From Raillietiella orientalis (lineage: Eukaryota), in assembly GCA_036172245.1 (NCBI GenBank), contig JAYWIR010000022.1, positions 620,001-684,000 on the forward strand: DNA of 64,000 nt, written 5' to 3'. The notes beneath the pieces are model-generated. The model searched no databases, was not told the origin of the DNA, and saw only the letters and a program-made list of their open reading frames with translations. Positions within the stretch are counted from its first letter, which is position 1, and each line of letters begins with the position of its first letter. Below, one piece after another: positions 24,900 to 62,160 of the stretch. The translations under genes were made by a program, and so were the position numbers.

Positions 24900-26520
24900 A
24901 GGGTACCTCAGCCCAACGGGAGGTGTGGGAACGATTCCATCGCCAAGCGCCTTAAACGGTTTGGGAAGGTAGCTCCCCCGGAAACCAGGTCTCTTGAACC
25001 GGAATCCCAGTGCAGAAACAACAGAACGTCCCGTTTCCAGCGGAGCAGGAACACGGAGGAGTCCGCATATAAGGATGAGACGGCGGGTTCTTCGGGAGGC
25101 ACACCAAGCAGGTCACTTGTGCGCTCTGCGTCGCGACGGAGGACTCGGCCTCCTGACTCTTGAGCACCTGGAGCGGCAGCTTCGAGTGCAGGGCGCTTGC
25201 CCTCATGGCGAAGATATGCAGCACCAGCTGGTGCGAGCCCGCACGATACCTAGTCAAGTGAGCCACCGGCTACGCGGGACTGTCTTTGTTCCTGGCGCGG
25301 CGGCGCAGACGCAACGTGTCCAGCTGCGTACTGGAGCTCCGGCGGATGGTCAAGCTGACTAGGACCAACACCTGGATCTTCTGCCGACCCGCAAACGGTA
25401 GTGCCTGGACGAAGGAAACCATTCACACGTGGACCAAGATGGTTGAAGAGAGTCTGGAAATGTGGCAGCAACTGCTGCACTGCTTCTACAACGACCGCTC
25501 GCTGTAGGACGTCATAGTGCAGCCCACCACGTGTGCGTGCGAGCAAAGAACCTCTCTAGCTGCGGCACTGCCCTCCTTCAGGGAGCACCTGGTCAGTAAC
25601 CAGCTGGCCAAATGGGAGTTCAGTTGCGAGATCAGTCAGAAGACGAGGGAACTAGGTGGTTGGACCACGGGCCAGCTCACGCACGCTGCGACTCCGAGTG
25701 TCCCACCGAAAGGACTATTGCGCTGGGGTGAGCTGCTAGGAATCCCACAGGAAGATCTCGAATGGTCCAGATCTGGAAAACAGCCGGGTCCTCACCCTGA
25801 ATAGTTGCAGGAGTCGGCACTTCTGCTGTTGCACTGCGGTATCCCATGCAACCCCCGCCGGCCATACTCGACTCAGAGGGCCATTGACCACAACTGTTGC
25901 AGGTGCAGGGACAGGAATCCTAGTTCCCGCACCCGTTCGAAGACTGCGTTACCCTCCGACCCCTGCGGTTGCGTTACGCAACGGCCCTTGGTGCTCCGAC
26001 GAACAATCTCAGGGACATGATGAAGCGCCTATTTGTGCTCCAGGCCCATTCTCCTGCCGCAGCATTCGCAGCTCTTTGCTTCTAAGGATGGGGCAGTATA
26101 TGTACCTGCTTCGACGGTACATATACTGAAATTGCTGCCTACGTGGGGTTGTGGCTGCCTGGAGCTACGGAACAAGAGAACGGCACGATAAGTACGTCAT
26201 CTGCTTCGCCCTGCGCTTCCTGAGGACTGCAGCAAGATGGTCCCACCTGGGGCACCCTCGGATGGAACTTGTCGGCATCCTGGAAGGATGCAGAGGATGC
26301 CCTCCAGTAAACAGTGATCCCTTCCTGCTCCTGCCAGAGTTTTTTTTTATTTATTTTTATTTTTGTTTGTCCCTCCTCCTCTGCTGCCGAAGCGAACCTC
26401 GCCTGCCTGCGTGCCGATTACTCGGCAAGTTCTGAGCATTTTCGGACAATGTAGGGGCGATGCCCCTACACATGTCTGCTTAATTTTATAATAAACGCAC
26501 CGGAGTGACTGGGTGATAAA
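24900..26520 (+). mobile_element. L1/Tx1-like LINE ORF2 3' third plus 3' UTR (copy B)
   Basis: ALRRDGGLGLLTL; WTTGQLTHAA...KGLLRWGELLGIPQEDLEW; ESALLLLHCGIPCNPRR...HNCCRC; FLRTAARWSHLG...ELVGILEG; ends AATAAACGCACCGGAGTGACTGGGTGATAAA. Confidence 0.85.
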
Positions 26521-26539
26521 CCGAGCAGGTCACTCCACC

Positions 26540-26960
26540 GAAGGAGTCCCTTCGCCCGGAAACGACGAGTGGAGCCGTCCACCAACGCGATCGTCTTTCA
26601 GCCGTCAAGGATTTGCTCAACTCCCATCATTTTGCAGGACAACTCACTCTGCTGTCATCACCGGCTGCTGTCATCGCTTGCCCCGAGGGCAGACAATGCT
26701 GCAGCAAGGGGTGTGACTCTGTCCGGGACCACTGTGTCCAGTTCTGCAGGAGATTTCTCGGAGGCTTGCATCGGAGTTTCGGCTGTGGATTAGGTTTCTC
26801 TGGGAGCACTTCAAGATTGGCAACCCAGGACCACAGTGCCTCCTGCCGCCAGGTGCTCCAGCCTTTTGGCCTGCAGGCGGTCCACGGATGGGCCACCAGT
26901 AGTGAGGACAGGAATCGCCTGCGATGCTATCCCACCGGCGGCACCGCTGCTCTTCCCGAA
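26540..26960 (-). mobile_element. Internally deleted L1/Tx1-like C-terminal fragment
   Basis: RPKGWSTWRQEALWSWVANLEVLPEK...TESHPLLQHC parallels the B/F C-terminal region. Confidence 0.4.
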
Positions 26961-27899
26961 ACGCAGATGACGGTCAGGCGTGGAGAGGAGCGACCCCCTG
27001 GGGGATACCACACCTAGGAAGACTATCCCTGCTCCGGAAAGGGCCAGCCGGGACGCTGCTACCGGCTCGAAAACTTTGGCGGGCTGCTGCGTTTTCGGAA
27101 CGCTGTCTGCGACGACGGGTTCCCTGGAGAGACGGCGTTCACCCCGGTCCGGCAGCCGAGAGCACTGGACACGCCCCCTTCCGGCGACTTCTCCGGCGAA
27201 TCCTCGGAAGGGATTCTCCCCCGGCGCGTTCAGGAGTCGTCATCCCGCATCGTCGCAGGGTCCCAGGTGGGACTGGTGGGGGCAGAGCAGTCAGTGGCTC
27301 TGAGCGGCGCGACGCTGCCGCCGCCTCGCGTGGAATCGGGCGGCACCCCGCGCGCGAGCACGCGCGAGGCGAGGCCTGTAATCATCGTTTTCTCGGGTTC
27401 TGCCGACCGCCGCGCCGGCGGTCCAGGGGATCCGCGCGATCCGCCCTGCTCCGCATCGGCAGGCGTTCCCTCCCCCGAGCGCTTCCCCGCTCCACGTTGC
27501 GCCCACTTCAGGAGGGTCCTCCGTTCCCTCCTCCCCACGATCGAAGCGCGCGCGGGGTTGAGCGAGGTTTTTTTTGCTCGGGGACAGTGTCGGCGTCGCA
27601 AGTAAACCTCGTGAGACTCGGGAGTCTTTTCCCATCCCCCTCCTCCCCATTTTCCTACTCCAGAGGAAGGTTGACTCTTCTTTCGCCTCTAGAACAGCGC
27701 ACGGGGGTCTCTGTTCTGGCGCTCCCCCCTTCCGAACGCTGCGTCGGATGGCCACTGATGCCGGCGCGGTCACGGAAGCGCAATGCAGGAAGGCACATCG
27801 TCCGGGGCGTCCTCCTCCGGCCAGCGGGAGATACGTTCGTCCTTTGAGGGGCGGTCTCCGGTCCTTCGGGTTTCACCCGGCCGCCTCCTGACGGGCGCC

Positions 27900-28250
27900 T
27901 TTCCCGAGGGTGTGCCTTCTCACTGTTTCGCGGAAATGGAGAGTCTCGGGGTCGCGCGCGCGCGGGGGAGCGGCGAGGGAAAGATGGCGGACACGCGTCT
28001 ATTTTTAGCCACGAGCACCGTGCAGTCCGTGATTTACGGGATGGATCCGCAGCAAGTGGATATGCCATTTCAGCTTGGCCATCCGGGAGAGGTGGGAGGT
28101 CGGAGGGCGGGTCCGGAGGTGAAAGATGGACTGCAGCAGGGAGGCTGGAAGGTCTCTCCCGGTGATGAATTGCCCCCGAGCCCAGCCCGGAGGAGGGAGG
28201 GGAAGCGGTGGGCCACCGCCTCCCAAGCGCAGGAGCGAGGTGGGAATTAT
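27900..28250 (-). mobile_element. Possible APE-endonuclease remnant
   Basis: HLLRIHPVNHGLHG...KID resembles DxWRxxHP...T...SRID. Confidence 0.28.
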
Positions 28251-29379
28251 CAATGGGAAGAGTAGACCGAGGGCCGTCGGCGGAGTTAGCTCAGAGGTGG
28301 CGAGTGCCTGGGAGGAGTCTGGCCCTTCGTGCTTCCCCTTCCGATCTTCCAATGAAGGGGGGGAGGGGGGGGAGCGGAGCCCTCCTTCAGATGGCTCGTC
28401 CACTCGGAATCCGGAAACTGTCGGACTTCGCGCAGGAAGCGCCGTTCCCACGTGCCTCTCATCCAGAGGCTCTTCGTCCTCCCGTCCAGCGTCCTTCCAT
28501 TCTCCGGGGTTTGCCTTCCCCCCCTCGGTCCTTTGGATCTCTTCTCGCTGCTGACGAGATGAACGATCGATTCACGAAGAGGAAAGACGGGAGAGAGAGA
28601 GAGAGAGGGTGGGGGGAGGAGTGACGAAAAAAAAAAAAAAAAAAAAATGGGAAGATTTTTCAGAATTGCGAAGGAGAAAGGGGGGAGGGTGGGAAGGAGG
28701 CGCGCGAGCCCAGGGGAGAAGCAGAACGACACGCGCAAATCCCGCCGTCGCCTCGCTAGGGACTTCGGCGCCTGCCTGTGCGTCACTGCCGAGGGCGCGC
28801 GGCCTGCTCCGGGGCAGCGCCATCCCCCTGGTCCGATTTGTTCCCCGTGGAACGCGGGCGTGCAGGCGGGGGACTACCCTACCCATCCCCCTTTTTCCCC
28901 GACGTGAGGATGCCGGTCGCGCGTGACCGGAGGCGTAGGGAGTAGCCGGGGACGGAGGAAAGGAGAAGGCGGTTCTTGAGGCTGCTCTAGAATTGGGAGC
29001 GGAGGCCCCTTGCGTTGTCGCGGGCCAGGCACCGCCGCATTTCCAGGGACGGGAGCTCAGTACAGGTGGACTCCCGGAGCGAGGGAGCGACGCTCGCTTC
29101 CGGGGGAAGAAGGGGGGATCGCGGGCTTTCGAGAGTGCCCAATCGCTTGCGTCGGGCAGCGGCGCGTCTTGGAACCCCTCACTTCAGACCGAGGACCTCA
29201 TCCGGGGATCTATCGGGTCTCTCGCTTCCCCAAAGGGTCTCGAGGAACATCTCACTTTCCTCAAGCAAAGAAGCCAAGGCAGCTAGGGCGTCTCGGATGC
29301 TGCAGACACGGGGGCAGCACGAAGAAGATTGAACTTTTTTTTCCTTGGGTGCCGGCTAGTGCCGGAAGCTCCGGTCGAC

Positions 29380-29720
29380 CTCGGGGATTCCCGAAACCTC
29401 TGCTCCTTGCCTCAGGGATTCCGCTCTGTCCCGAGAGCGGTTTTGTCTATCCCCACGCGCCACCTAAACCCAGCCTGTCCCGATCTGGCGCTCTCTGCCA
29501 GGGTTTCTCTTCCCCGCAGCGACAAGCGGTTGGGGATTTTCGGGGTGAGTTGGAGTGCCCGCCGCCCTCCCGTGGTTGCGCAAGCGCTCCCAGGGACGAC
29601 GAGCCGTCTCGAAAGGAGCCACGGAGGCTCGCTTTTCCTTTCAGGACACGAACCTCTGCGTCCCACGGGGTCGCTCCCGGTCAGGAGATGCCCTTCAGTC
29701 CATCTCTTCCTCATCCCAAG
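29380..29720 (-). mobile_element. LINE ORF1 remnant (RRM-like to zinc-knuckle junction)
   Basis: TTGGRRALQLTPKIPNRLSLRGRETLAESARSGQAGFRW matches the TGxRxxxxxLxxxIPxxxxxxG...GQxxCFxC pattern of Tx1/L2-type ORF1. Confidence 0.5.
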
Positions 29721-29899
29721 CGTGTCGGGGAATTTATTTAAACCGAATCAATGAAACGATTAAAAAAAAAAAAAAAAAAAAGGGCAATCGGAAGGAATCT
29801 GACATCTGCGGGCCAGAATGGAAAGGGTTAAACCCCACTGGAGATAAAACGAGAAAGGGAATGGAGGAGGGAACCCGTGGATGCACGGAGAAAGGAGAT

Positions 29900-30560
29900 G
29901 GACCGGCGCCACGGCGATGATGAACCTGCAGTTGCCGCCCGATCATCAACGGGGCCCTCGACGGCGGGTCCGGTTTCCCATAATTCCCCCAGGAGCCTCT
30001 GATCTCCTTCTGCGCTGCGAGCACGCCTTCGTTTCGCCATTGCTCGGCACCGCGACCTTCCCCAGGAACGAGGAATGCCGCTGCCGCCGTGGCCGATCCC
30101 CGAAGGATGCATGTGCGCGCTGCGGGATCGCCCGAGTTCCTCTTCACCATCGCCGCAGATGCATGCACCAAACCGCACCCTGGGGGTGCACCGATGGCAG
30201 CAGCAGCTTTCCCCAGCAGGGACAAGCCAAGAAGAGTACTTGACTTGGACGAACCTTTTCCCGAGCGTCCACGGTCTGCGTCCCCCAAGGTCGACTCCTC
30301 GAGGTCTTTCCGCTTTCCATCCCCTCATTCATGCCTTCTTGGTGATCCAGCCAGCAGGAGAGCTCTCCTCCACCAGGATGGGGCGGGAACTCTTTCGGAG
30401 ACCGGAAAGCGCGGAGTGCTGCTGCTTCCTCTGGACAACCTTCCCACTCCTCCGAGGCATCCTCCGGCGGAGGGCGGCGCCTCCTCATCTTCAGTTTTCT
30501 GGACCTCGCTTGAGGGGAGGGGTCCAAGAGCGCCGCCACGGATCCTGTAAACATCCTCTC
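29900..30560 (+). mobile_element. L1/Tx1-like ORF2 C-terminal fragment (copy J)
   Basis: ADACTKP.../LGVHRWQQQL...EEYLTWTNLFPSVHGL parallels TDAA...GLLxWxxLL...EDLxWxSV in B and F. Confidence 0.45.
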
Positions 30561-30899
30561 CGGTGGGATCTCCCCGGTCAGTCGTGGAGCGTCCCCACTG
30601 CGACTTTTCGTGGACCGGAGGCGTCACGTGATTGTCTCTGAGGGGTGGGAGAGGCGGCCGTGAAGATCCTCCCCGTCCTTGGGGTTTGGGTGTAGCTTCT
30701 GGTTCCTTGATGGATCTCTCGTGGGAGTCGACACTTCGAGCTCGAGAGAGGAGGAGGAGCAGAAGGAATCTTCCCGTTCAGTGCGAAAGCCGTCCAGAAG
30801 GCGGGTTCATCCCTGGGAGAATCGTGGACCCAAGAAGACGGCGGCGGTGCAAGAAACACATGGGAGGAGGAGGGGGGGAAGGGTCTCCAAAGCATTCGG

Positions 30900-31600
30900 C
30901 CGCAGGCGAAATCCCGCACTCTCGAGAAGGAGAGAACCGGAACCATCGGGGAGGTTTGGAGTGAGGGGGAAGGAAATTTGTTTGAGGCTCGCTCGAGGTC
31001 CATCTCTGGAGGAGCGTGGAGGTGTCTTGCAGCCTTGTTCGCCTTGCGACCAGCTCCAGCTCACCCGAGGAAAACTTCGGAGGGAACTAGCCTCTTTAGA
31101 TGCTCCGATTTGTCTTCGATTGTGCTTTGATCCACAGAGTCGAGAGGGGCAGCACCCCTGCATCACCGGTCCCAGGCTTCCAGTGGTCCAACCGGTCTAT
31201 CGAGGCTGGGTTCCCATGCTTCCAGCATCCCAGGATCTCTCGGTCACTCCTCTGTCCGAGGGTTAGGAAGGTCCAAGGATTAGGAAGCCACGAACGACGG
31301 TAAACCTACGGAAACATCCGCAGCTCCCGCTGCTCTTCTGATGCGCCTCTATCGGCTTCTTTGCTTCCGGCATTTTTTTCGACCGTAGCTACTATAATGG
31401 GGAGCTCCTTGTAACGGCCCCCGGAGGGGCTGTGCATGCCGTAAGCTCCGGATTTGCGGCCGTGGACCTTCGCGTGGGAGGATCCAAGTCTCCATTCAAA
31501 TCTGAACGCCAACTTTCCAACGTGAGGAAGCTGGAAAGGGATGGGTGGAAACACACGCATCTTCCTCTCTCATATCCTCCCTTCCTTTGATTCGAAGGGT
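30900..31600 (-). mobile_element. Reverse transcriptase remnant, RTE-like
   Basis: SGGRYKELPIIVATVEK (~GRxxxDxIF...EK) followed by VMQGCCPSRL (~RQGCxLSP). Confidence 0.33.
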
Positions 31601-31839
31601 GGATCCACTCAATGTTCCCATGGCACATTCCGGGGACAAGGGATGCTCCTTCCTTCCCGATGTGCTCCTGCTGCTACTTTGAAACTTTCCAGCCCCCCCG
31701 AGACTCCACGACTCGAACCTTCCTCAAGAGCTCGGGACTTCGCCGTTTCTTGCATTCTATGATCTTGGAGATCCTCCTGGAATCATTCTTAAGACCGCGG
31801 GCGCTTCTTCAGAGGAGAAGGAGAAGCGGACTGGACAGT

Positions 31840-32280: not shown

Positions 32281-32329
32281 TTCCCTCGTTGGTCTAGGCG
32301 GTTTGCGGTTCCCTTAGAGATTCCCCTCC

Positions 32330-32800
32330 ATGCGTGCAAAGGATCCCCCCACTAGGGGAGGCCCTTGTGGGGGGATCCTCCGTCTCGTACCATGGAGCTG
32401 GCGCGATACCTCTCCAGAGTGTCAAGAAGCGCGCTGCTCCCTTAGGGGAGAAACCCTTCAGGGAAACCTGGAATCGTCCCTCCGGGGTTCTCTTCAGAGG
32501 AAGAAACAAGAAGCGGTTCCTTTCTGGGGGGTCCCTCTGAAGAATAAATGAGGAGTGGATCCCCTCCAGGACACCTCTCCAGAGAGAATGTGGACGAGGT
32601 GGTTCCTTTCGGAGTTCCCTCTCAAGCGTAAGAGGAACGGACTCCTTCCTCCGGAGCCTTCCCAGATTCATAGGGTACTCCCCCCCGGGGTTATCCCTTA
32701 CAATCTGAAGAGTTCCACGCAACCTCGGGTCGCGTGGACAGTATTCGGACAGTGGACATGAGAGCGTTGGATCGTAGATCTCTGCGGTCCAGCGCCTTCC
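32330..32800 (+). mobile_element. 'Head'/ORF1-like repeat, copy 3
   Basis: Near-continuous similarity to 23020-23400 (CCTCTCCAGAGTGTCAAGAAGCGCGCTGCTCCCTTAGGGGAG...PYNLKS). Confidence 0.7.
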
Positions 32801-36049: not shown

Positions 36050-37080
36050 GTATCTCGTGTGAACTCCTCGCCGCGGGCCTCGCCGCTTTCGAGGATTCGT
36101 GCTCCGGCAGACCTGAAGATGTTGCTCCACCGAGCGGCACAAATGGCACCGAAGACGAAATCGTCTGCAGAGTAGCAATTCTTTGAGAAGGCGGACCCCG
36201 GTGGTCCAGTAGGCGGAGTGGAGCTCGCAGCACTCCGGCGAGCCTGTGGAAGCCAGCACCTGCGGCCATGTTGGATGCCAGCACGCCAGCATAGGAGGCC
36301 TCCTCCTGCCGCTGGACCACCTTGGAATCACTTCTTTATTTCGTGGGGATCCTGGAACCTGACAGATCTGGGACTAGGACCGCCGCCCGAACAGCCATCG
36401 TCGGCAGGGACCCGGCGAGGCTGCTTATATTGGGTCTCCTTTCTTCTCTGGAGCCCTTATGGGCGCGTTCTCTCGAAGACGAGGGCGACGCCCAGGGCGA
36501 AACATTCTTCTCCCCTTCCTCAGCACCAGATCCAGAAGAAGAAGATCCTTTCCTGGCTTCCTCCCGCTGTCCCTCTCTCCGTTTTTTTTCCGGACTTTGT
36601 TTTTTTGGATCCGCTCCTGGAATTTCTTTTCTGAAAGGAAACCCGCAAATAAAGCGTTCCTTGTTTCTTCCTCTCAAGAGAATCCCGGAGGAACGATTCC
36701 AGGTTTACCTGAAGGGTTTCTCCCCTAAGGGAGCAGCGCGCATCTTGACTCTCTGGAGAGGCATCAACCAGGTCCATGGTACGCGATGGAGAGCTCCATT
36801 TTCACAACCGGAGGAAACCCCCGAAGGGCTCCTTGATTCCTGTAAGGATCCTGGAAGATCAACTTCCAATCCTGTCCAGTCGACGGGGTCATCCGGCCTC
36901 CACTGGTGCCACGCCCGAAGCCTAGAATCCAGCCAGCGTCATCCTGCCGGGAGATTGAGGGGGAAGGGGGAATCGAAACCCTCTCGCCATTTCTCGGCGT
37001 CGACCCCTCCTTCACCGGGAGGGATTCGAACCCGCAATACTCAGTGCCATGCTCGGAGACAGAGACAGCCAGCTCAGGCT
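36050..37080 (-). mobile_element. 'Head'/ORF1-like repeat, copy 4 (longest)
   Basis: Aligns to copy 1 over several hundred bases; translates to NQGALRGFPPVVKMELSIAYHG/LVDASPE (RRM-like) and downstream RLRCHLCRSVEQHLQVC (CCHC knuckle). Confidence 0.72.
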
Positions 37081-39150: not shown

Positions 39151-39181
39151 AATGTTAAGCAGTCCCCCCCGCAGGGCTGGA

Positions 39182-39640
39182 CTCCCGGTTGCGCTCCGGG
39201 TGCGCTCACGGGAAGCGTCCGCGGCAGGACACCCAGTCCTGCTGCGCCCTCCGGCAACGTGCCGAGGCGCGGCACTGGGCAGAGCTGGGTGGGACCCGGC
39301 TACGGGGAGAGGTGAGACGCTAGGCGGCAAGCGAAAAGAAAAAGGAAAAGGAAGCCCCGTGGGGCGGGGACTCGGGAAGGGACTACTGCCCGCTGGAAAG
39401 AGTCCTCTGCATCCTTTCAAGGACGCCGCTGACGCGGCCCTCAGGAGGAGCTCCGTCCAGTGGATGGCACTCCCTTTGCCCCGACCCCTCCATGCCGCTT
39501 CCAGGACCCCACGGAGACGGGCGGCCGACGGCAGTGCGTCGCTTGGGATGAGGCGTCTCGTCAGGTTCCTCCTCCAGGGACCCGAGGGCAGTCACAGAGT
39601 GTCCCCAAAGGGACAAAAGGTCATCAAGAGGAGGGTGAGG
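39182..39640 (-). mobile_element. L1/Tx1-like 3' fragment (copy H), GC-shifted
   Basis: RNLTRRLIPSDALPSAARLRGVLEAAW...SGVLERMQRTLSSGQ*; the UTR has three hairpins homologous to those of F and B. Confidence 0.75.
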
Positions 39641-40138: not shown

Positions 40139-40710
40139 GTCGATTATCTGAGAGGTGGGAAGCTGCGCGGCAGCGCTCTCCGAAGGAAACCTCGAAGGAC
40201 TGGACCCTTGCCTCCCCCCTCTCTTCACCAACCCCTCCGTGATAAAGTCGACCGATCCCGGCTGCGTCCCTTGGAGAGGGGTACTTGGCACTGCCTACGT
40301 CAGACAGTCTGAGTTTCTGGCTGCTTTGCTGCCTCCGGACGCTCCGCTCGCGTGGTCTCGGATCGCACGTCGCTCTCCAGGAGAGTCATGCACATGCGCG
40401 CGTTCCGGCGCCTGCTGCCGTCCTCAGAGGGTTTGCCCCCGTTCCCGTCCTTCCAGGGGGTGCGGCGTGGAATGGGAAAATATCCCCACCCTGCCGGAAC
40501 CCGGGAGACGATTCCTGGAGGCTTTTCCCGGGTCAGTCCGCGTTCCATCTTCTCTCGCTCGGACTCGCCGGGGGAAAAGCTCACAAATTGTGGTCGGATA
40601 CATGGTCCTAACACGCTCCATTTGCCAGTGGACCTGCCAGGTTGCCGGTGCGCAGACCAGTGAGGTTCACCTCGGCAGCAGTGAGGAGGGGAAGAAGGGA
40701 AAAGAAAAAG

Positions 40711-40790
40711 ATAAACAAATAAAAACACTCTGAAGATCTGAGAAGAGAACGCTGAAAAAATAAACAAATAAAAACACTCTGGAGATCTGA
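40711..40790 (+). repeat. Direct repeat of a 31-bp unit, period 49
   Basis: ATAAACAAATAAAAACACTCTG(A/G)AGATCTGA occurs twice. Confidence 0.9.
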
Positions 40791-40895
40791 AAAGGGAACT
40801 CTAATCTGAAAGGGAAAATACCTGTCTCCTTTCCGGGATGCCGGCTAGATGGAACCCAGGTGGGGGGCATCTGGCTGCCATCTGCAGGAAGAGGA

Positions 40896-41670
40896 TTTTT
40901 CCCCCAGTGGGTTGAGGCGTTTCGCTAATAAAAAATAAATATCCACAATCTGTGTGCTCAGAACGGTGGCCACGTCCATTTTCCAAGGAACCTGCCAGGG
41001 TTCCGGTACGCAGACCGGTGAAGGTCTCTACAACAGAAGAGCATAGGGGGCGAACAAAAGGAAACAAAGAGAAAGATAGAACTTCTGGGATTAGTTTGGT
41101 CCCTTCATGCACATCCTTTCCAGGTCCTCTGCATCCTTTCGAGGATGTTGGCAAGTTCTTGCTGAGTATTTTCCAAGTGAGGCCGTCTTGTTGCTATCTT
41201 CATAAATCGGGCGGCGAAGTGGACATGGCACTCCTGTCGTTTGGTCCTCCTTTTGCTTCTCTCCAGGTAGCTACAATCTCGCGTAGGCAGCAGAGAGCTG
41301 CTGGCGAGGCAGCCGACAGGAGGACGTCTCGTACGAAGAGGGGTCTAACAGCGTTTCTGTAGTTGCCGCTGGGGGCTCCTAGGGTCGCAGCAAGACGTTC
41401 CCAGAGGGGCCGGAGAGCGACGCTATCCACAAAAAGGTACAGGATGGACTCTAGTTCCCCTCGCCCGCGACATCCAGGCTCGCACTCTCCAGTGTCCGAT
41501 GATACCGGCAGGCGTTGCAAGGGAGGCATCAATGCAGCAGCCTCAATGCTGACTCCTTCTACTTGAATCGGAGGGTGTGGATGCCTAAGAGCACTGGGGG
41601 TCGCTGCAGATCTTACACAGAAATATCTAGTCAGACTGTCCAGCCCACGTCGCACCAACTGTCCTCATTG
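40896..41670 (-). mobile_element. L1/Tx1-like 3' fragment (copy C)
   Basis: KESALRLLH*CLPCNACRYH...LWERLAATLG...FMKIATRRPHLENTQQELANILERMQRT; UTR with GGTCTGCGTACCGG and a degenerate end AAACGCCTCAACCCACTGGGGGAAAAA. Confidence 0.85.
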
Positions 41671-41709
41671 ACGACTTTGCCCTATTCACCACCAAGCCCA
41701 TCCCGTTCT

Positions 41710-42346
41710 CTCGTGCAACGCCTGCCGGCATCACCGTACAAGGGTGTGTGTGGACCCGAACTGTGTCGGGTGCGGAGAGCGTGAATCTCTCTCCCACCTG
41801 CTAGTAAATTGTTTCCCTTGGCTCCTCTTGAAATCTTTGCCGCGGCCCTGGGAACCTTCGGCAGCAGCTCCAGGGACGCTTTGAAACCCCTCTTCGTTAG
41901 CGACTGCCTTCGGCCGACAGTCTCGCTAGCAGCCCTCTGCTGAGTACGCGGGATCGTCGCTGCCTGGAGCGACGCAAGAGGGACGCACAGAGGGAGGGAT
42001 GCCACATCCACTTTGCCTTCCGATTTCATGAGGATGGCCACAAGATGGCTCCACCTAGACAACTTATTACGGCAAGAACTCGCTGGCTTCCTGCAGAGGA
42101 TGCAAAGGACCTGCCTCAGCAGACAGTGGTCCCTTCCAGCATCCCCCAAAGTTTATTTATCTCTATTTTTGTCTCTTTTCTTTCTTTTTTTTTGTCCCCT
42201 CCCCTCTGTTGCCATGGAGGACCACGCCGGTATGCGAATCGGTGTCTCGGCAGGCTCCTGTTGAATTGTGTGTGGTTGGACCTCCAATTTTTGGAAAATG
42301 TTTATTTTTTTATTGGGATAAGCGCCCTGGCTCACCCGGGTGAGAA
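41710..42346 (+). mobile_element. L1/Tx1-like 3' fragment (copy D)
   Basis: Intact knuckle CNACRHHRTRVCVDPNCVGCGERESLSHLLVNC; FMRMATRWLHLDNLLRQELAGFLQRMQRT; ends GATAAGCGCCCTGGCTCACCCGGGTGAGAA. Confidence 0.88.
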
Positions 42347-44704: not shown

Positions 44705-45842
44705 TTGACCTCAGGCCTACCTGACTCGAGATTTCATATCGTACAAGTGGCGCCACTCTGCATACTCTGCATACCTGCAACCGACAGGATTCTCTTCGCG
44801 ACTTCGGGAAAGGCTTCTCTCCCTGGTTTCCTGGCAACAGCGAGAGCATTCTGCCGCGGGCAAAACGCGGGCTCTCCCGCTGCAGGAGTGGTTGGGACCA
44901 TTCTCACGAAACCGAAATGAAGTGCCGGTGGCTTCTCGAGACTTTCGTTTGAAGAAGCCCGTGAAGGCAGTCGGGAAGCATCCTGCGAGATCGCGGTAAA
45001 AAAGAACCTGAGATGCTGGACGGCGCGTCAACTGGCTGACGCATGCACCCCCGCCGCCATCCTCAAAGGAATTCGTCTCTAGTTGCAACTTATGCACATT
45101 CCTTCTAAAGAGAAAAATACCCCCAGTGTTCATGGGCCACGTTTTCCCTGAAGTGGCAGGACTCGGCATTGCAGTTGTGGCACTGGGAAATCCCATGTAA
45201 CGCATGGGTCCACCATTGGACAGGGGGACAGCACCAGACCGAGCCAGGTGAGGGGAACGGGAAACCTTCCCGCACCTGTTGTGGGATTGTGCTAAGTGTC
45301 CGAGAATGCTTCGCTGCTACCCTCCCACTCCCGATGGACGGCAGAGGGGTGTTGCAGCGCTCCTCGCCTCTTTCGACTCGACTTCACCTGCGGCTTCCCT
45401 TGCAGCCCTGTACTGCCTTCGTGGGATCGTGACAGTGAGAAACTGTGACGAAAGAGGTCATCACAATTGTCTTCTCCTTCATGAAGAAGGAGACAAGATG
45501 ACCACACCTTTGCCAACAAAAGGAGAAAGTTGCCAACATCCTCCAGAAGATGCTGAGGACACCAAGAAGGAATCTATGATCCTTTCAGCTCCCCCCAAAC
45601 ATTTTTCAACTGAAATTTTGTGTGCATTTTTTTCTTTTCGTCTACCCCTCCCCCCACTTCTCCTGTGCTGCCTTCATCGGGGGAGCTGCTTACGAGAAGC
45701 AGCGCCTCTGGGGCATTTCCCTTTGTAGTAGGGATGTGAAGCCACTACGGAGATGGACGTTTTTATATTTTTTATGACTTTCCTTTTTTTGTAAACATTT
45801 TTTTTTAGAATCAACGCTCCTGCGTGACCGGGTGAAAATAAA
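44705..45842 (+). mobile_element. L1/Tx1-like 3' fragment (copy E)
   Basis: WTARQLADACTPAAILKG; ALQLWHWEIPCNAWVHHWT; RETFPHLLWDC; VANILQKMLRT; ends AATCAACGCTCCTGCGTGACCGGGTGAAAATAAA. Confidence 0.85.
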
Positions 45843-51749: not shown

Positions 51750-52650
51750 TAACTTGCATCTCAGCATGAACTCCTTGGGCTGCGCTCGTAGAGCGGGTGA
51801 CCGCGGAAGCGCCATCGCCCGGTCGAGGGATCCAGAAGAGGAGGTCATTGCGGCGGAGCAGGGTTCGTCGAGAGCGAGGAGAACGGGCTCCAGCAGAGAC
51901 GCCCCCCTCCTTCTCGGACGCGCCCCACTCCGGGAGCGATCTTCCGCTGCCATGACGACCATCGCGATCTCTACTCCGGAGGAAGGTCCGGAAGGTCCCC
52001 CTGTAGCAGAGGTGTGTCCTTGAGCGGTCCCCCTGTAGCAGAGGTGTGTCCTTGAGCGGTCCCCCTGTAGCAGAGGTGTGTCCTTGAGCGATCCCCCTGT
52101 AGGCGTCTGTCGCATGGCGCGGGAGCCACGATTGGTCGGCTCTGCCCCCATCTCCGGAGCCTTCGAGATGGACTTTGCGACATCGCGCTCTTCGGCCTCC
52201 AGAGTGTCGGGCGGGTTGCCTGGGAACTCTGCTCCCCAGATCCACCGGATCCTCTCTCAGCACCCCTCCGCTTTCGGAAGGAATCGACTGACCGTTGGTT
52301 CTTTCGACCCTTCCGTAGTCCTCCAGCTTTCGCTCCATAGAAAATCTCGATCCTGCCTTAGGTCGGCGGGACCCCACAGCGAGGCTGGCATCCTGTGGAA
52401 TCGCTCCCTGATACCCTGGCAGACCTCCTTCTCGTGAGCTGGGGAGAACTCCTTCTGCCAGAGACCGCCTTCCAGCCTCCAGCCGAAGCGTGCCGAGAAT
52501 GGCGAGCTCCCGATAAGCTCCCCGAGAAGTTACTCCTGCGGAGTCCCGGATCTGCGGAAGTTTTCCTATCAGGATCCCCCATGTGACAAGAAAGGCCGAC
52601 GGAGAACTCTCACACCTACCGAGTTCGTCCCGGCTGCGCGAAGAACCGGC
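51750..52650 (-). mobile_element. LINE ORF1-like remnant
   Basis: MERKLEDYGRVER (~LxxYGxV) and a frameshifted RRTCxRxND knuckle; interrupted by a 32-bp tandem repeat. Confidence 0.4.
51994..52102 (+). repeat. Minisatellite: three identical 32-bp units plus a partial fourth
   Basis: GGTCCCCCTGTAGCAGAGGTGTGTCCTTGAGC at 51994, 52026 and 52058; partial GATCCCCCTGTAG at 52090. Confidence 0.97.
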
Positions 52651-52897: not shown

Positions 52898-53337
52898 AAT
52901 ACACTGGTGGACAGATTTGCGTGTATAGAAATGTACTGGCAGACGGATCATGGGATCCTGAAAACGATGGAGTTCTTAAACGCTTAGGCGTCCCTAGAAA
53001 ATACGCGACCAAGATGAGAAAACTGATAGTTTCATCAGTGATCGCATGCAGAAGGGATGCCTACTGGACACATCGCCTGGGATATGCACCGGATAATGCT
53101 AGAGACCCGCTAAAGTTTCTGGATGTCGAAGCACCGTAAACAATCAGCTCAATGCCAATTTGGTCCATTTCCATAGAAAGGATTGGTAGATCAGGCAGGT
53201 AGAAAAACGTACTGGCAGACGGATGTACTGGTAAAAAAATTGTACTAGTAGCGTGGATGTGCTAGTAGGGAGTGTATTGGCAGACGGATGTGCTTGTAGG
53301 AAAATGTACTGGCAGACGGATGTACTGGTGGAGGGAT
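52898..53337 (+). repeat. Degenerate ~16-bp tandem array (ATGTACTGGCAGACGG / ATGTACTGGTAGAAA type), MITE/MULE-subterminal-like, split by a retro-insertion
   Basis: About eight units at 53207-53337 and two to three at 52898-52948. Confidence 0.75.
52945..53139 (+). mobile_element. 5'-truncated NeSL/Utopia-like RLE retrotransposon C-terminus, well preserved
   Basis: Open frame GSWDPENDGVLKRLGVPRKYATKMRKLIVSSVIACRRDAYWTHRLG matches the GSWDPxND...Y...RKLxVSxxIxxSRDIYxEH terminus of this group. Confidence 0.8.
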
Positions 53338-54137
53338 CCGCGAATTGAGAAGTGCAAGCTAGGAAAACGCACAGGCGAACGTGCTGGTAGCTATTTAGGT
53401 GTATTCAGAGCCAAGAGCGTTCACAGCGGGATGCATTGGTTGCTGCATTTCCCTACGAGAGTGAGCATGGCTGATGTGATGTACTTTCCCTGATGGAGCG
53501 AATGTTATTGAGGTGGATTCTGCATGCACATCGATGCGTGTTGAAGTCGGGCGCTGCTGGATTGCTCACCTTTCTCTGATATGGAGTTTGAAAGAAACAG
53601 TTCCCATTCAGCATTTTGTTCCACAATCTAGAATCGGCGCATCTCGAAGATCACATCGTCTGCGATTTTAAAGGCACTGCAGCTGACTTCTTTTCTTCAG
53701 TCATTTGACAGGAAAAGTGAGAATCAAGAGGGGATCCGGGAGGAATAGCGATCCTGTCGGTAGTCACAGGCGTTCCATCACCGCCATCTCTTTGTCGATC
53801 ACCTACAGGTCCCTATTCTGGTCAGTCAGCTAAACTCGTGTCTCTTGATCCTCCCCCTCTGAGGTCTCAGAACTTGTTCAGAGTATTTCCTGGAAGCTGG
53901 AAGCAGAGCATCATCATTGCGTCGAGGCAACTCTGTCCCGAAAGATGACGCATTCTTTCCATTGCATTCGCCTTTGGAGGCGGGTGGCGCCAGTACGATG
54001 GAGGCGCAGGTGTAACCTGGTACCCGCGCGCGCCAGCAGTGTGAAGCCAAGTTCCACTCTCGTCTCTCCAGATTTCCGGATCCCGATCGCGGTTTCTTCG
54101 GTCGGTTCTGAGAGCGACCTTGAGCTCGGCTGGTTGA

Positions 54138-55430
54138 CACTCGGTCACGCCGGGGCGTTTATTTATGAAATATAAACGTCTGTGGCAGGACGTTTGATCC
54201 TGCCACGTTACTCATAAGTACGAGAAGGGACCTGCCGGGAACTGGCACGCAGGCCAGCGGGGTTCGCCTCTCCAGCACAGGGGAAGGGGAGACACACAAA
54301 AAGGAAAAAATAAAACAAAAACATACAGTCAAAAAATGAGGGGAGGGGGGTCGGGAAAGGTTTACTGTGTGCTGGAGGAGGTCTTCTGCATCCTTGCCAG
54401 GATGCCGGCAAGTTCCTGTTTCAAGACTCCCAGATGGGGCCATCTTGACGATCTCCTCATGAAGAGGACAGCAAAATAGATGGCGTCCCCGTCGTTCTGG
54501 CCTCCTCTGGCGTTGCTCCATGCAGCCACAGCCCCGCGCGTGGGCAGCACAGTGCTGCTGGGGATACAGCTTGCCGGCGTGAGGGCGTCTCGTAGGAAGA
54601 GACGCTTCAAAATATCTCTGGTGTTGCCACCGGGGCTTCCAAGGGTCGCGGCAAAGCGCCCCCAAAGGTACTGGAGGGCAACACAGTCCACTAGGAGGTG
54701 CGGGAGGTATTCCCGCGATTCCCGCTCCCAACACCTGGCACAGTTTGGATCCACACACATCCGTGTCCAATGATGCCTGCGGGCGTTGCACGGGAAGCCC
54801 AAGTGCAGCAGCATCAATGCCGACTCGTACCACTTTAAGGAGAGGGTGCGGATGTTCGTGAGCACTGAGGGCCACTGTAGGTCTTCCTCCAGAATATCCA
54901 GTAACACGTCCCAGCACAAAAGTCCACAAGGTCGAGCACCCGAGATCGCAGCGTCAGTGAGCTGGCCCGTCGTGCACTCGCCCAGTCCTCTTCTTCCGGA
55001 GATTTCTCTGGAAGCTCCTCGGCTGGTGGTTCCTCGGTGCTGCAGGTCTCGGCTTTCCGGTGCTGCCCTGCTGTTCGAGGCCGTGGCTTCCAGGTGAACC
55101 CTTCCCCGCAGCAAGCCGTAGACATTTCCGACGAAGGGCGACCGGCCTGACCGTTCGGGGTTCAATTTCCTCGGGATTTCGAGTTCCTCAGAAGAGCCCC
55201 TGGTTAGTGTCAGCTGGAGGGCCGAGTCCACTCCTGGAGGGCTACGGAAAATTTTTCCCCGTGCTCTTGGAACCACTTCCTCGAACCGTCTGAATTCATC
55301 TTGGCGCCATTTTTCGAGTTCGGATGGATGAGGAAAGCGCTGTGAGCGACTCCCGGCTAGACAGGCGCCGCAGCGGTAGCATTCCAAAAACGCCATCCAA
55401 GAAGGAGCGTTCCTTGCAGGATATACGTTT
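54138..55430 (-). mobile_element. L1/Tx1-like ORF2 C-terminus plus 3' UTR (copy F, best preserved)
   Basis: Open frame to the stop at 54362: EDLQWPSVLTNIRTLSLKWYESALMLLHLGFPCNARRHHWTRMCVDPNCARCWERESREYLPHLLVDC...FMRRSSRWPHLGVLKQELAGILARMQKT; CCHC at 54683-54742; UTR ends AATAAACGCCCCGGCGTGACCGAGTG. Confidence 0.9.
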
Positions 55431-56499: not shown

Positions 56500-57220
56500 G
56501 TTTACTAAGTGGAATCTGCCATCAGGGAGGTCAGTATCGTACAGCCAGCTCCATGGGACGCAACCGACTCGATGGCGGATACCTCAAAGGAGGAGGGGGG
56601 CTTGTGCAGGACTGTCGAGGTTTCCTCGGAGAGCAAGGACGCGCTTTGCCTGCCTACCAGATTGCTGGGAGCCATCGGCTGTCTCTCTGTGCGTTTTCCA
56701 CTGCTGCGGATGGAGGCTTTTTATCTTCGGGGACTCCAGCAGCCACCCCGTTCCGTCCGCGCGAGGACGACGGCGCAGGAAACAACTGCCGCAACTTTCT
56801 TATGCGAAGGCTTCTGCATTAGATGACCACCAGTTTCTTCCGAAACATGGAGCCCCTACTTGTTCTGACTGCACGCGAGCTACTCAAGATGCCACAGGGA
56901 GGGTATTTCGAGGAATATTTGAGAAATCTGTCTCATGAGCTCGTGGACTTCTCCTGAACGAGGCCAGATTAGAAGACATGATTTGAAGATCCCAGGAACC
57001 CATCTGATGGGTTGGAGGAGGAGCGCATGAGTGGCACACTGCGCAGGAGTGCTTCTGCGACACTTGGGAGTTCCTCCAAGAGGGTTCGGGCAGTCGCAAA
57101 GATGAAGGCATCTCCAGCCTCGAGATTTGTTCTCGCTGGTCCGGCATGAAGACGGCAGTCTCTCTTATGTAATCGTGTGGTTTCATGCGAACCACCGTGT
57201 GCAAACCACGTCTCGTTCTT
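56500..57220 (+). mobile_element. R2-like remnant (post-RT to CCHC)
   Basis: ESAIREVSIVQPAPWDATDSMADTSKEEGGL (~DxxIR...WxxLP...GGLG); ERMSGTLRRSA. Confidence 0.4.
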
Positions 57221-58099
57221 CCCTTTCCTTCTGAAACGAAATTCCTCAGCTTTTTCCTTTTTTTCCTTCCCTTTCTAAATAAAGCCAGTACTGTCAAGTA
57301 CCTTTCATGCAGTGCCAGATAACAGAGTTTTGATGTTTATTTGGAACACGGCAAAAGGACTCGAAAGAAACTCCTGAGAAACGGGAACGGAGGAATCGCA
57401 TTTAGGGAAATTTCAAAACCGCTCGCGGCCTTCCTGGTTCCTGGACAACATATTCCGTTCTTTGCGTCTGGACTCCAACCAAGAACTTTCCAAGTTTGCT
57501 CAAATTTTTTTTCCCCCTTTCAAACACGCGAATCCATACCAATCCGTTCTTAAACAGATCGCAATGGAGCACTTAGGGATGCCGTAGCTGTTCCGGGAAA
57601 ACCAATTTCGTTTCTACCATGGCGATCCAATAATTCCATTTCTCCCTTCCCCTCTTTCTTCAAGGGATGTTCTCTTCACCATTCAGGTTGTTCTCTGGCA
57701 GTCCTTCACATTATTTGGTTATCATCCAAGCTTCCCACTTCCTTCTAAATATAAAATCTTCTTGTGAATGATAAATAGGATTTGCTGAATGCAATTTCTC
57801 CGTGAGTCTCCTCGGAGAACTTCCTGCGTTTCACATTTGCTTTGTTTGTTTTCAACAAGCCAAGCCCAACGTCCTTCTGATTGCTGCACGTTCATCTGCC
57901 AGCTCAATAATCAAGATGTTGCCCCTGTTGAGTGCTCACGAGTGCACTCGGAGGAGACGCACTTCTAGGAGTTTACCTATGAGGACGGTTCCTCGAATTG
58001 CCGACAGTCCAGAAGACTCTCCTTACCGCCTTCCAGTTGGTTGATTTTCTGGGAGGGAAAACAGCACCGCTCTTCGCAAAACGAGAGCTACAGCAGCCT

Positions 58100-58900
58100 T
58101 TTGCACATGGTGGGCGGTGGAAAACTCCAGAATTCCCCATGGATGCCAAAATCTTTCATTCTCTCGGAGGAGCGTGGATGAAGCCGCTACTAGGGGGAGG
58201 CGTCCTTCGACTCGATTATCCACTCTTGAGGCCGAATCTCGAGGAACTGATTCTAGGGACGGCTGCAACGGGGTGGGGTGAGTTTGAAGCAAAAGAGGAT
58301 TCCAGTTGCTATGGCAGCAGGTGCAGTCATGCTCGTCGTCATCATTGCGTTCCCCTTCTGGGTGTGTCACTCCTTGATGGCTGTTCGAAAACAGAGCTGC
58401 GCTCGATCAACGACACCAGGCTGCTCAACTTGCAGCGCCCTTCGGAGAGTTCTGCTCGTCTTGTTGGGACAGCCCTGCCGGTACCAGACCACATGCAGTC
58501 GCTCCCCGTTCCTTCTCGAAGGCGGGGGACGTCTGTTGGTTTCATCCCTTCCTCACAAACGCTTTCATAATCGAAGAACACGCTCAAAAGTCACCAGAAA
58601 CCCGGAAAAAATCGTTGCTTTCCAAGGTTCGATGTGCGCTCTTGCTCGCCCTGCTGCAAATGCCGAGGATCCAAAACGGGAATCATTAGGGCGAACGGGT
58701 GAAGCGTCCAGGGATGCCGTCTAGAGGGCCCGCAGTAGGCATCCCCCATTTTCAGATGGAAACCCGTCCTCCCCTCTTCCGCAGTCTTTCCCCTCAACCG
58801 TGGATCCGGGATCCCTCCAAGTTCTCCGAACTCCTACCGCATCAGCAGTCCACTGGTCTTCCCGGTAGAGAGCCCTAAGTGACACCGGAATTGCGCTCTG
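58100..58900 (+). mobile_element. R2-like CCHC plus RLE remnant
   Basis: ARSTTPGCSTCSALRRVLLVLLGQPC; RNPEKIVAFQG...AEDPKRESLGRTGE (~KPDxxxxxG...SLxxAxxxK). Confidence 0.45.
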
Positions 58901-59399
58901 TTTTGGTTTTGCTCGAATCCGACAGCTTCCCAGCTCGTCTTGCTGGAGCCACGAACCGCCTTGCAGCCGCCCCTTCTTTTCCGGTGTCACGTGAGCACCG
59001 TCGATGCCTGTGCAGAGGAACCAGCCTGCACCCAGGCGCGCCCCGATTGACGTGCTTTTAGCTCAGTGAGACTGGTCTTGCGGAAGGTCTACCGGGAAGC
59101 GTCTCGGGATGCAGAAGCCCCCCTCTCAGCTTCCCCTCCTCGACTGGCCCCGATGATTCAGACTCTCGGATCTCAGGATGGCAGACCCGGCACGCGCAGG
59201 AAGCTGCGAGAGACTATCAAGACGATAATGTGAACTCGGGGCTTCCTCACGGGAAACTCCTGGGGAGAAATCGGGAAGGAGGAAGGAATCAGAAACGCGC
59301 CGCAAGTCCAAAATCGATAAGCGGATGGAGGATGGGAAGATACGGCCCGTGTTTCCGCAGCAGCGAGCGGACGACGCTATCCGACGGAAGACTCTCAGG

Positions 59400-60200
59400 A
59401 AAAGTGCGATCCTGGCTCCAGAGAAGCAGGAGCGCCTTCCTCGTGCTCTGTGGCTACGCCGCCAAGCTGTTTCAGACGTCCGTTGAGCACCGCTGCTCCG
59501 GTTTAGCAGGAAATCTTTGCTGCTGCCTTGCCCTTTGCTGACTTCTGCCAACATCCGCCGCTCCCGAGTGCGGGTGTTCACCCTGGGGCGAGTGTGTCAC
59601 CTTTCTGAAAATCACATCCCGGATCGGTCTGGAACATTACCACTTTTCCGTGTTTGGCTTCACAAGGATTTCATGGGGAATCACCCTCCTCTGATTTCTG
59701 CTTCGCCTCCTGCCTGAAGAGTCTGGAGAGATGGCTGCATTCACTGTGGGGCACCTCGCCTCCTCGCAGCAACGTCCCCTCCTTTCGGCGTTTTTGTTCT
59801 TTCGGACCTTGGTTCCACGCATGCTTCGTCCAAGGTTCTGGGAACAGGCAGCCGTCTAGGAGCTACGGGAGTAGCAGCCCTCAGCGGACGGGATCGCAGG
59901 CTGGCCGCAGCTCCCCTTGAGCACTGCCGGCTCAGCACCAAAGGTTAGGGTTTCCTCGTCTGCGTGGCCTCCCTGCTCAGAGTCGTGACTACCCAGCGGA
60001 CCGTGCGATCCGCCACGGTAGTCCGTCAGCTTGGGCGTCGCTCTTCCGCGAGGGTGTTGAAGCGATCGGGTCCGAAGGGCATAGACGAAGGCACCGTTTT
60101 CTTTTTTTTCTTTCTTGGCTGTTCCCTGAAGTTTCGAAAGTGCTTGGGAAAAAATTCTGGAACAGAATTCTTGGGGGTTTCCCTGCCAGTTCCACAATTT
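59400..60200 (+). mobile_element. Reverse transcriptase remnant, Jockey/I-like
   Basis: QERLPRALW, FGFTR, TGSQAGRSSP (~GxPQGSxLSP), DYPADRAI (~YADDxAI), TEFLGVSL (~KYLGV). Confidence 0.45.
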
Positions 60201-60337
60201 TGTTCCCTGTTCTTCCAGACTCCGCGAGACCTTCGCGTCGCAGCCACCTCTGACTTCCCCCTTCCTCCGAGTTCCCTCCTACAACTTGAGGGGCGAAGAT
60301 GGCGCTGGCGCGCTTTCCTCTGAGGGCTGACAAGAAG

Positions 60338-62160
60338 TTTTTCATCTGGTCACGCCAGTGCGTTTATTTTATAGAGATGAACCAGTCGGGAACACTCTGG
60401 TTCCCAAACAAAGGCACAAGTTCAAGGAATACTGGAAAGTCCGGAGCAGAGAAATGGAGGGAGACAAACCACACAAAAATGGGGAATCCGGGGGAGGTGG
60501 AGCAGGGATCTTTGGGTTCGCTCTTCACACTGAATATGTAAAAACCGGGGAAGGTCCGGAGCAAAAGGAAGTGGAAATGAAAAAAAAAAAAAACAAAGAA
60601 AATAAGGTGATGATGATGATGATGATGATGGGGACAAGGGTCACCGGTTTCCGCAAAAACAGCGCCGCATGCTCGCGGTCCCTGCCTTGGCATCTTCTTG
60701 CAGGTGAGGCCACCCTGCAGCCATCCTCATGTAGGCGACTCCCATCATGGTGACCTTTCGCTGCGTGGTCGTCCCCAGCACGTGGAGGACCGTGACAATG
60801 GCGCTCCCTTCCGGAGTCCTCCCGGTGCGAAGAGCCGTCGCAGAGTATCCTCCTGATGCAGGAGCGCGCTGACGCCAGCCTCTGCTGCAGTTCCTGGAGG
60901 GCACCACAGTCCAAAAGCGGGTGCTGATCGACTCTACCGACCCACACTGACCAGTTCGGCTATGCAACCCCTTCGGAAACGAGGGTGCTGACTGACTGAA
61001 CTAGAGTTCCCAGCGCAGAAACAGGCAGCACAATTTGTCTCCAGCTTAAGGGGAACTCGGAAGTTTTCAAACAACAGGGAGGAGCCACAAGATCTTCGGG
61101 GATGCACTCGACAGTTGGAGCCACTAAAGGAGTCCTTTCTCCTGGATATGCGGAATAGCATCGTCTGCCAGCTCGCGCATCTTCCAGCCGCCAAGGAGTT
61201 TTGTCTCGTCTGTAACGGCGCAACCGGCACCGATGGACAACTGTTACATTTTGCCCAGAGGGCCGACAGCGCTGCGGCAAGAAGTGTGGCGGCGGCCTGG
61301 GTGAACCACTTCGTCGAGTCCTGCATCACCGCTTCCTGAAGGTGGCTTAGGAAGTGGCGCAGAGGGCGAAGTTGCTCCGGGAACATACCTTGGAACGCAG
61401 CCCGGGACTCAACCACCTCCTGTCACCAAGCGCTGGAGTTCAGAGGGTGGCAGGAGACCCGCTGTTGGGCTTCCAGGAGCGAGGTGAATTGTCTGAGGGG
61501 AAGCTAAATCCTCCATCCTGTACAGGAATCTTGGCAGCAATGAGAGCAGTCCTTCGCTGCCGGCGCATCTCTTCAGGATGAGGCGTTCTGGCGCACAGAA
61601 CGGGGGAGTCCACAACCTTGCGCACAGCGCCAGCATTCGGAACTGTGGACCTGCAGTCTGATTCTCTCCAGCGTCAAGATGGCTAAACCAGAAGCCCGAC
61701 GCGAATCCGCCCAAGTCATTGAGGCGGATCCCGGACCTCGCAGGTCTCCAGAGAGCATTCCTCAATAGGCGTTGAGTCCGAGAAATTAGTCCGAAAGTAG
61801 AGGGAGGCACTAGTCCGTCGTATCTCAGGGACCGCAGCACGCCTTGCTGCAGATGACGAAGAAGGCGTATCAATGTGATCTTCCCGGATACGGAGCGATG
61901 TCGTATCCGATTCTTGAAGGAATTCTTGTGGATTCTAGAATTCCCGCTCTGACAGAGGGCTGCCGTCCTGCTGGAAGTGTTGGTCTCCTTTGTGATGCCG
62001 AGCGTCTTACCACCCTCGAGGAGCAGCGTATCCGACGAGTACTTGTGGTGCGCATCGTGGACTGGTTGCTCCCGGTCCTTTCTCGGCTTCACGGAGGGCG
62101 AGAATGCTCTGCAAAGGGCGCTAAACCTTCCCTCAAGCTACCCAGGAACTCTCCAATAGC
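60338..62160 (-). mobile_element. L1/Tx1-like ORF2 3' half plus 3' UTR (copy G)
   Basis: KTLGIT (~KYLGI), RSVSGKITLIRLL, VPPSTFGLISRTQRLLRNALW, HPLLDCGALQEL, YMRMAAGWPHLQ; ends AAATAAACGCACTGGCGTGACCAGATGAAAAA. Confidence 0.82.
60608..60630. repeat. (TGA)n microsatellite inside the copy G 3' UTR
   Basis: Direct read. Confidence 0.95.

Follow-up and report, generated by a model that had tools for sequence, protein, structure and literature searches.

A 3' hairpin with compensatory changes, a variable stem and a conserved loop has been described in a monocot lineage of L1 long interspersed nuclear elements (LINEs), the LINE1-1_ZM group (Ohshima 2012, PMC3472496; here and below, statements on cited papers refer to the part of each text that was available), and in the L2-clade element ZfL2 the stem is read generically as structure and the loop as a specific sequence (PMC4176376). 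We analysed a window of 64,000 nt on contig JAYWIR010000022.1 of Raillietiella orientalis (genome assembly of 210 Mb in 491 contigs), in which a first-pass annotation had noticed stems close to an AATAAA-like signal at the ends of several repeat copies, lettered A to H. The six stems that it quoted lie where it placed them and fold as written and, copy A apart, come from 5'-truncated copies of an L1-group LINE that is abundant. We put the probability at roughly two in three that this is a 'stringent' LINE, whose structured end would be bound in cis by the protein of open reading frame 2 (ORF2p) and whose reverse transcription would have its start measured off from the terminal stem.

The LINE1-1_ZM group and Chlamydomonas L1-1_CR resemble the R. 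orientalis family in their L1-clade ORF2 and in a compensated 3'-end hairpin with a conserved loop (PMC3472496), and the contrast that had been drawn between stringent 3' recognition and L1 was too strong a premise. L1-1_CR has a poly(A) end, and each of the two has its tail in common with short interspersed nuclear elements (SINEs) (PMC3472496), whereas the R. orientalis family lacks poly(A), had no SINE partner in 102 ends, carries three to four hairpins around AATAAA, has a fixed end and forms a separate reverse transcriptase (RT) lineage. ZfL2-1, ZfL2-2 and UnaL2 of the L2 clade share the structure-stem/sequence-loop signature seen here in one hairpin, P2 (PMC4176376); UnaL2, however, ends in TGTAA repeats (PMC3747384), in contrast to the non-repeated tail of 5-7 nt in the present family, which belongs to another clade. 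Tx1-Mar, a crocodilian Tx1, is likewise an L1-group element with an apurinic/apyrimidinic endonuclease (APE) and inserts preferentially into other transposons, but the words 'stem' and 'secondary structure' are absent from the available part of its description and the SINEU families mobilised there have poly(A) (PMC4494074). In SART1Bm/R1Bm and R2Bm a structured 3' untranslated region (UTR) sets template choice and RT start, and annealing of primer to RNA has been proposed (PMC7265360, PMC11194090); SART1Bm requires a long poly(A), however (PMC7265360), and R1 and R2 are of other clades. Human L1 has the nearest solved ORF2p and a computationally proposed 3' UTR stem-loop (PMC5135761), yet it is poly(A)-primed with long variable A-tails, neither of which is seen here. 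In the literature searched (Repbase and most subscription papers lie outside it) we found no description of the family, or of any animal L1-group LINE that ends in AATAAA and a hairpin and lacks poly(A). The stringent principle is already known in the L1 clade; what appears to be new is the poly(A)-less multi-hairpin end of an undescribed lineage.

Element identity and the 3' end

Tblastn with intact relatives identified ORF2 C-terminal remnants ahead of the 3' ends of copies B, E, F and G and of two further copies, and copy H was assigned to the family through DNA similarity to F. The window copies are decayed: among the 150 longest ORFs of the window past 14 kb, not one scores above the Pfam cut-off. 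A protein search of the genome with F returned 15,715 first-look candidates. Full-length copies measure about 5.5 kb between duplications. Their ORF1 carries CCHC knuckles (weak Pfam scores), the knuckle type of Tx1 ORF1, and lies upstream of an ORF2 whose roughly 1200 aa include APE and RT domains above the Pfam cut-off (PF03372, PF00078) and a zf-RVT domain below it (PF13966, E 4e-4). The closest solved relative of ORF2 was human L1 ORF2p (E 3e-46, compared with 6e-15 for R2), and the closest database relative among the matches listed had 34% identity. Two RT trees were built, both quick trees. The RT fell inside a 55-row L1-like group (Shimodaira-Hasegawa-like approximate likelihood ratio test, SH-aLRT, 98); together with two sister lineages the family made up a clade specific to its host (support 99-100), apart from vertebrate L1 (outside the Anolis/frog clade) and from elements with a restriction-like endonuclease (RLE), and its RT grouped weakly (83%) with plant L1.

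Domains, RT tree and best solved match thus uphold the L1 part of the earlier assignment to an L1/Tx1-type lineage; as to the Tx1 part, no named Tx1 reference occurred among the 240 matches listed for ORF2 and no named Tx1 row in the tree. The family does have sequence-specific targets, a Tx1-like trait, with subfamily-specific 3' flanks that may be as short as a 3-5 nt motif or as extensive as a long shared site. In 34 copies, target-site duplications (TSDs) of 9-17 bp lay at each copy's own 5' boundary, which fits L1-type duplication and 5' truncation, and the relaxed vertebrate L1 type does not fit, poly(A) being absent and the RT lying outside the vertebrate L1 clade. These characters identify an L1-group LINE of what appears to be an undescribed L1-like lineage. 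Divergence within clusters was 1-10%, and the family is large and still young.

The 3' module runs in the order P2, H3, AATAAA, terminal CCCGG/CCGGG hairpin, about six bases and the 9-17 bp TSD. In loci chosen by protein match, AATAAA and the terminal hairpin came after the ORF2 C-terminus in 42/42 cases (a count made with a lenient motif; background 7/156 coding windows), and in the whole set, which was partly motif-selected, they were present in 173/178 ends. Two exact terminal patterns had 413 and 1248 matches in the genome, with none for the reversed controls. The terminal hairpin always begins 3-4 nt past AATAAA, and the element ends 24 nt past it. As the first-pass annotation had remarked, the elements end in only a few A's: the longest A-run was 1-5 in 173/173 ends and none exceeded 5, with A at +5 in 163/173 and at +6 in 161/173. 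The duplication was resolved in 34 of the 173 ends, starting 6 nt past the stem in 19, 5 nt in 6 and elsewhere in 9, and the tail was fixed within subfamilies (12/12, 16/17). Within a subfamily the end is fixed: it lies 5-7 nt beyond the terminal stem, 6 nt in most cases, and joins the TSD directly, and poly(A) is not copied into the DNA ends. An AATAAAC-like signal had been reported for the copies, but H has GTGAGCG instead and E a decayed AATCAA with its loose stem 59 nt upstream; the reported spacing of 15-20 nt between stem and signal held for B, F and G (18-19 nt) and ranged from 1 to 53 nt over the lineage representatives. Rfam gave no match at gathering score in the window and five loci.

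Hairpins around AATAAA

The 173 UTRs formed 54 clusters, of which 53 were aligned by sequence only and one, chimeric, was dropped. The structure named here showed 56 both-side changes compared with 25.8 in shuffles. Covariation supports best the hairpin P2, enclosed by an outer stem P1, which has a CUGCGU loop, had been overlooked, and was recovered by RNAalifold along with the terminal hairpin. Its closing pair was CG in 20, UA in 19 and GC in 3 of the 53 lineages, and Watson-Crick to Watson-Crick co-changes numbered 13.3 compared with 7.1 ± 2.3 for any co-change on a tree from the coding region; the loop is nearly fixed in sequence on this covarying stem. The selected multi-hairpin 3' element around AATAAA, without poly(A), that had been proposed therefore holds overall, with P2 and not the hairpin named at the time as its best-supported part. 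A third small stem reported upstream is an alternative pairing of the 3' arm of P2 with the 3' arm of P1; its pairing was reached by 239 of 500 shuffles and showed no covariation. In copy E a 7-bp stem of new sequence (45685-45703) sits at the P2 position, and in locus L050 (cluster 38; L-numbers are genomic loci fetched for comparison, with coordinates of their own) an extra stem has been added between P1 and H3.

H3 is the stem before AATAAA on which the first-pass annotation had centred. Within the 75 nt that precede AATAAA, the best local hairpin was significant against dinucleotide shuffles (p < 0.05) in 19/39 lineage representatives, with z < -2 in 18/39 as against 3/38 coding and 3/39 flank control segments, and H3 beat shuffles in 13/17 consensuses of clusters with at least three copies, so that the shuffle comparison proposed earlier came out in favour of the stems. 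Described as swapped and mostly unrelated in sequence, the stems proved to be compensated homologues that have a common GRRC/GYYC core and align through intermediates. Their outer five positions were paired in 77% compared with 45% when partners were permuted (21 clusters, core-anchored) and, over all 53 clusters, in 63% compared with 40%; the core weights behind these figures were chosen after seeing the sequences and several mis-anchored rows were kept. H3 co-changes (5.3) exceeded the slid-partner control (1.6 ± 1.3).

Private mutations in dead copies struck the stems at nearly the background rate (0.068 and 0.063 compared with 0.077); they broke H3 pairs in 65/107 cases and left a double change paired in 3/107, whereas differences between lineages preserved H3 pairs in 458/630 comparisons, which are non-independent. 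Since lineage differences keep the pairing that private mutations break, selection acts along the active lineages, and the pairing is selected there. G-U pairs and lineage-wide G.A and G.G mismatches persist in H3. At the level of helices the covariation evidence is positive: P2 and H3 are conserved 3' stem-loops with compensatory changes, helix by helix and not pair by pair.

The terminal stem is invariant among the lineages of the family and differs in its two sisters, X and Z, whose ORF2s are 28% and 25% identical to that of the family (sister ORF2s 25-30%). In X, AATAAA is separated by four bases from a CCCCA/TGGGG stem that contains a 3-nt bulge and a further, inner stem of 3 bp; AAA follows, and then a duplication of 13 bp. 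In one X sub-lineage the inner terminal stem is altered on both sides. Lineage Z (only two copies) has the same terminal shape with CCCTCA/TGAGGG. As judged from these sequences, the true sequence swap is that of the terminal hairpin between lineages. A paired change in the terminal stem of copy G, which had seemed compensatory, is plain chance: double hits at partner positions occurred in 3/86 copies, with about 4 expected (hand-computed from single-hit counts). CpG decay was considered as its cause and rejected, CpG transitions being at 0.050 compared with 0.045 at other C/G, with damage spread over the terminal stem.

The 3' UTR of lineage Z is only about 50 nt long and comprises stop codon, AATAAA and terminal hairpin (L214, minus strand, after the ORF2 stop; L215 4864-4918). 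Lineage X (L031-L044, e.g., L034 2072-9037) forms head-to-tail 5.6-kb arrays with the 13-bp duplicated target between units, and is also present, in antisense orientation, at one position within the ORF1 of an element related to the focal family.

Copies in the window and neighbouring elements

The features of the window are collected in Table 1. Copy A, taken earlier for a 3' end of the family, lies outside the module: its stem is 5' of a minus-strand tRNA-headed SINE with a different tail. This SINE family is old, about 700-850 nt long, with an A-rich end, a tail unlike that of the LINE and 3567 first-look candidates. The GC-rich stretches 15000-22000 and 27000-31000 (60-69% GC, many overlapping ORFs) resembled none of the fetched loci, and no Pfam match in them exceeded the cut-off.

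Table 1. Features of the R. orientalis window (window coordinates).
Feature	Position	Strand	Details
Copy B, 5' TSD	25103..25117	+	15 bp; TSD search
Copy B, 5'-truncated decayed LINE	25118..26519	+	tblastn to intact ORF2s, TSD
Copy B, ORF2 C-terminal remnant, then 3' UTR	about 25118-26285	+	tblastn
Copy B, outer stem P1 enclosing P2	26384..26428	+	26384-26389 with 26423-26428
Copy B, P2 (CTGCGT-loop hairpin)	26401-26418	+	two mismatches in dead copy
Copy B, H3 (main stem of first-pass annotation)	26450..26470	+	
Copy B, AATAAA	26490-26495	+	
Copy B, terminal hairpin	26499-26513	+	decayed
Copy B, 6-nt tail TGATAA	up to 26519	+	element end
Copy B, 3' TSD	26520..26534	+	
Copy H, old	39184..39242	-	H3 39224-39242; terminal hairpin 39184-39200; AATAAA lost
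Decayed 3' UTR fragment, not in first-pass annotation	40558..40660	-	P2 40645-40660; terminal hairpin remnant 40558-40573
Further copy	41003..41710	-	ORF2 remnant 41132-41710; P2 41003-41018; terminal motif unrecognisable
Further copy	41699..42346	+	ORF2 remnant 41699-42102; P2 42226-42243; decayed AATAAA/terminal hairpin/tail 42317-42346
Copy E	45139..45838	+	ORF2 remnant 45139-45570; loose H3 45724-45749; AATCAA, terminal hairpin and tail 45809-45838
Copy F, 5'-truncated LINE	54134..55017	-	9-bp duplications 54125-54133, 55018-55026
Copy F, hairpins	P2 54241-54258; H3 54182-54206; terminal hairpin 54140-54154	-	
Copy F, signal and tail	AATAAA 54158-54163; tail 54134-54139	-	
Copy G, old	60339..61840	-	ORF2 remnant 60698-61840; P2 unrecognisable
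Copy G, 3' module	H3 60388-60405; AATAAA 60363-60368; terminal hairpin 60345-60359	-	terminal hairpin decayed
Copy A, outside module	24387..24497	-	stem 24480-24497; B box 24387-24397; SINE head from about 24451
tRNA-headed SINE	22704-23400	+	
tRNA-headed SINE	23842-24451	-	
tRNA-headed SINE	32378-32742		
tRNA-headed SINE	36607-37071	-	
Short tandem array	51994-52102		period 32 nt
Short tandem array	53199-53328		period 16/32 nt
Short tandem array	40704-40799		period 49 nt

Elsewhere in the genome, subfamilies have landing sites of their own (L053, L054, L079, L080 and L048; L060 and L064-L066; L047 and L115-L132; the B family, L001-L030), and several of these sites read as antisense insertions into stretches of related LINEs that code for conserved endonuclease or RT motifs. 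In L083 (1501-1625), L056, L092 and L157, copies are inserted into the duplication behind the 3' end of another copy, which gives stacked tails. An RLE-type (NeSL/R2-like) element in L216 (2068-8501) and L043 lies in opposite orientation inside 28S rDNA, with Rfam large-subunit rRNA matches on both sides, and ends at or just past AATAAA; its insertion site is presumably close to the R2 site. Another RLE-type element (L213 8116-8293, minus strand) has an A-rich end directly before a U2 snRNA gene, a targeting that we take to be Utopia-like.

Readings of the 3' end

Under the stringent reading that we favour, the 3' UTR RNA would fold into P1/P2 with its CUGCGU loop, H3 and the terminal CCCGG/CCGGG hairpin just past AATAAA, itself the putative host cleavage and polyadenylation signal. 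ORF2p would bind the hairpins in cis, by analogy with ZfL2, with the terminal hairpin as a universal anchor, the P2 loop as a sequence-read tag and H3 as an accessory structure-read stem. Target-primed reverse transcription (TPRT) would start at a set distance from the terminal stem, so that poly(A) further 3' would not be copied. Several results weigh against this reading. In a home-made tree-aware test no pair among 3321 reached E < 0.05 (best E 0.7-2.8; the two top-ranked pairs in the 53-row run were proposed pairs), and H3 co-changes did not exceed the null for any co-change (9.6 ± 2.6). The 4/17 consensuses that missed the H3 test are one related group with a short H3 only, and the terminal stem, being invariant, has a pairing without covariation support within the family. 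One lineage (3 copies) lacks the 3' arm of P2 and sister lineages X and Z show no P1, P2 or H3, so that the upstream hairpins are dispensable; on this comparison AATAAA and the terminal hairpin appear to be the universal part and the upstream hairpins add-ons. A search for SINE tails found no SINE with the same 3' tail in the 102 exact-motif ends, a sample and not an exhaustive set, of which 84 have ORF2 upstream and the other 18 are short truncations without a B box.

The dispensability of the upstream hairpins, along with their variable spacing, would also suit a main role in host 3'-end processing or RNA stability, with ORF2p starting either where the RNA ends or where the UTR meets poly(A), which we consider unlikely. 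The terminal hairpin would then set cleavage after AATAAA, at its constant distance of 3-4 nt, and H3 and P2 would protect or export the RNA; AATAAA is indeed retained in all three lineages and also ends unrelated RLE-type elements of the genome. Relaxed poly(A)-primed RT should, however, give variable A-tails, and 0/173 ends had more than 5 A, while a near-fixed P2 loop on a covarying stem is the pattern of a protein-read tag. It is very improbable that the stems have no function and are quasi-palindromes perfected by template switching, which would mimic compensatory change. Such switching can make hairpins (PMC10710096), and the single-pair tree-aware tests were not significant, but most private changes in dead copies are single ones that break a pair, the G-U pairs and lineage-wide mismatches of H3 persist, and the terminal motif marks the exact end in 42/42 unbiased ends.

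A variant compatible with the stringent reading, possible but rather doubtful, concerns how the junction is set. Cleavage would fall a few bases into the 3' flank, so that the RNA would carry 3-5 nt of the previous target; by annealing to the nicked primer these bases would determine the junction, and they would hand a short target preference to daughter copies. At the TSD start, a motif of 3-5 nt is conserved within every subfamily, even among its dispersed copies (e.g., ACC at 90/84/93% of 33; TCG in 12/12), and 18/34 TSDs start with a non-A base, where a poly(A) template could not have paired with the primer. The element end 24 nt past AATAAA also favours this variant, and R1Bm is said to require downstream target sequence for accurate initiation (PMC7265360). 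The motif is present in the 5' TSD copy too, however, with some preference at -1 upstream of the TSD, both of which go beyond RNA pairing, and endonuclease specificity alone explains the motif equally well. Bases corrected to match the family motif in just the 3' copy numbered 5, compared with 2-3 in the opposite direction (by eye), a difference that was not significant. An inherited non-A terminal base was discarded as proof of templated ends, being mostly target-derived in resolved cases.

A broader picture, to which we give a small chance, is that poly(A) is never copied in an animal radiation of the L1 group, where one terminal hairpin shape, kept at 25-30% identity, would place both host cleavage and RT start, and where a target tag of 3-5 nt on the RNA would pair with the primer and make target preference partly RNA-inherited. 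If true, RNA-inherited target tags would explain the different landing sites of dozens of subfamilies inside one another. The more than 50 natural UTR variants with intact ORF2s form a series for asking which hairpin ORF2p reads, and a compact 30-nt end giving precise insertions is of interest to builders of TPRT tools. Few relatives of L1 with stringent 3' ends are known, and the family adds to them a large, young member of the L1 group that does without poly(A) and ends with single-base precision; this favours a derived origin of poly(A) recognition in mammals.

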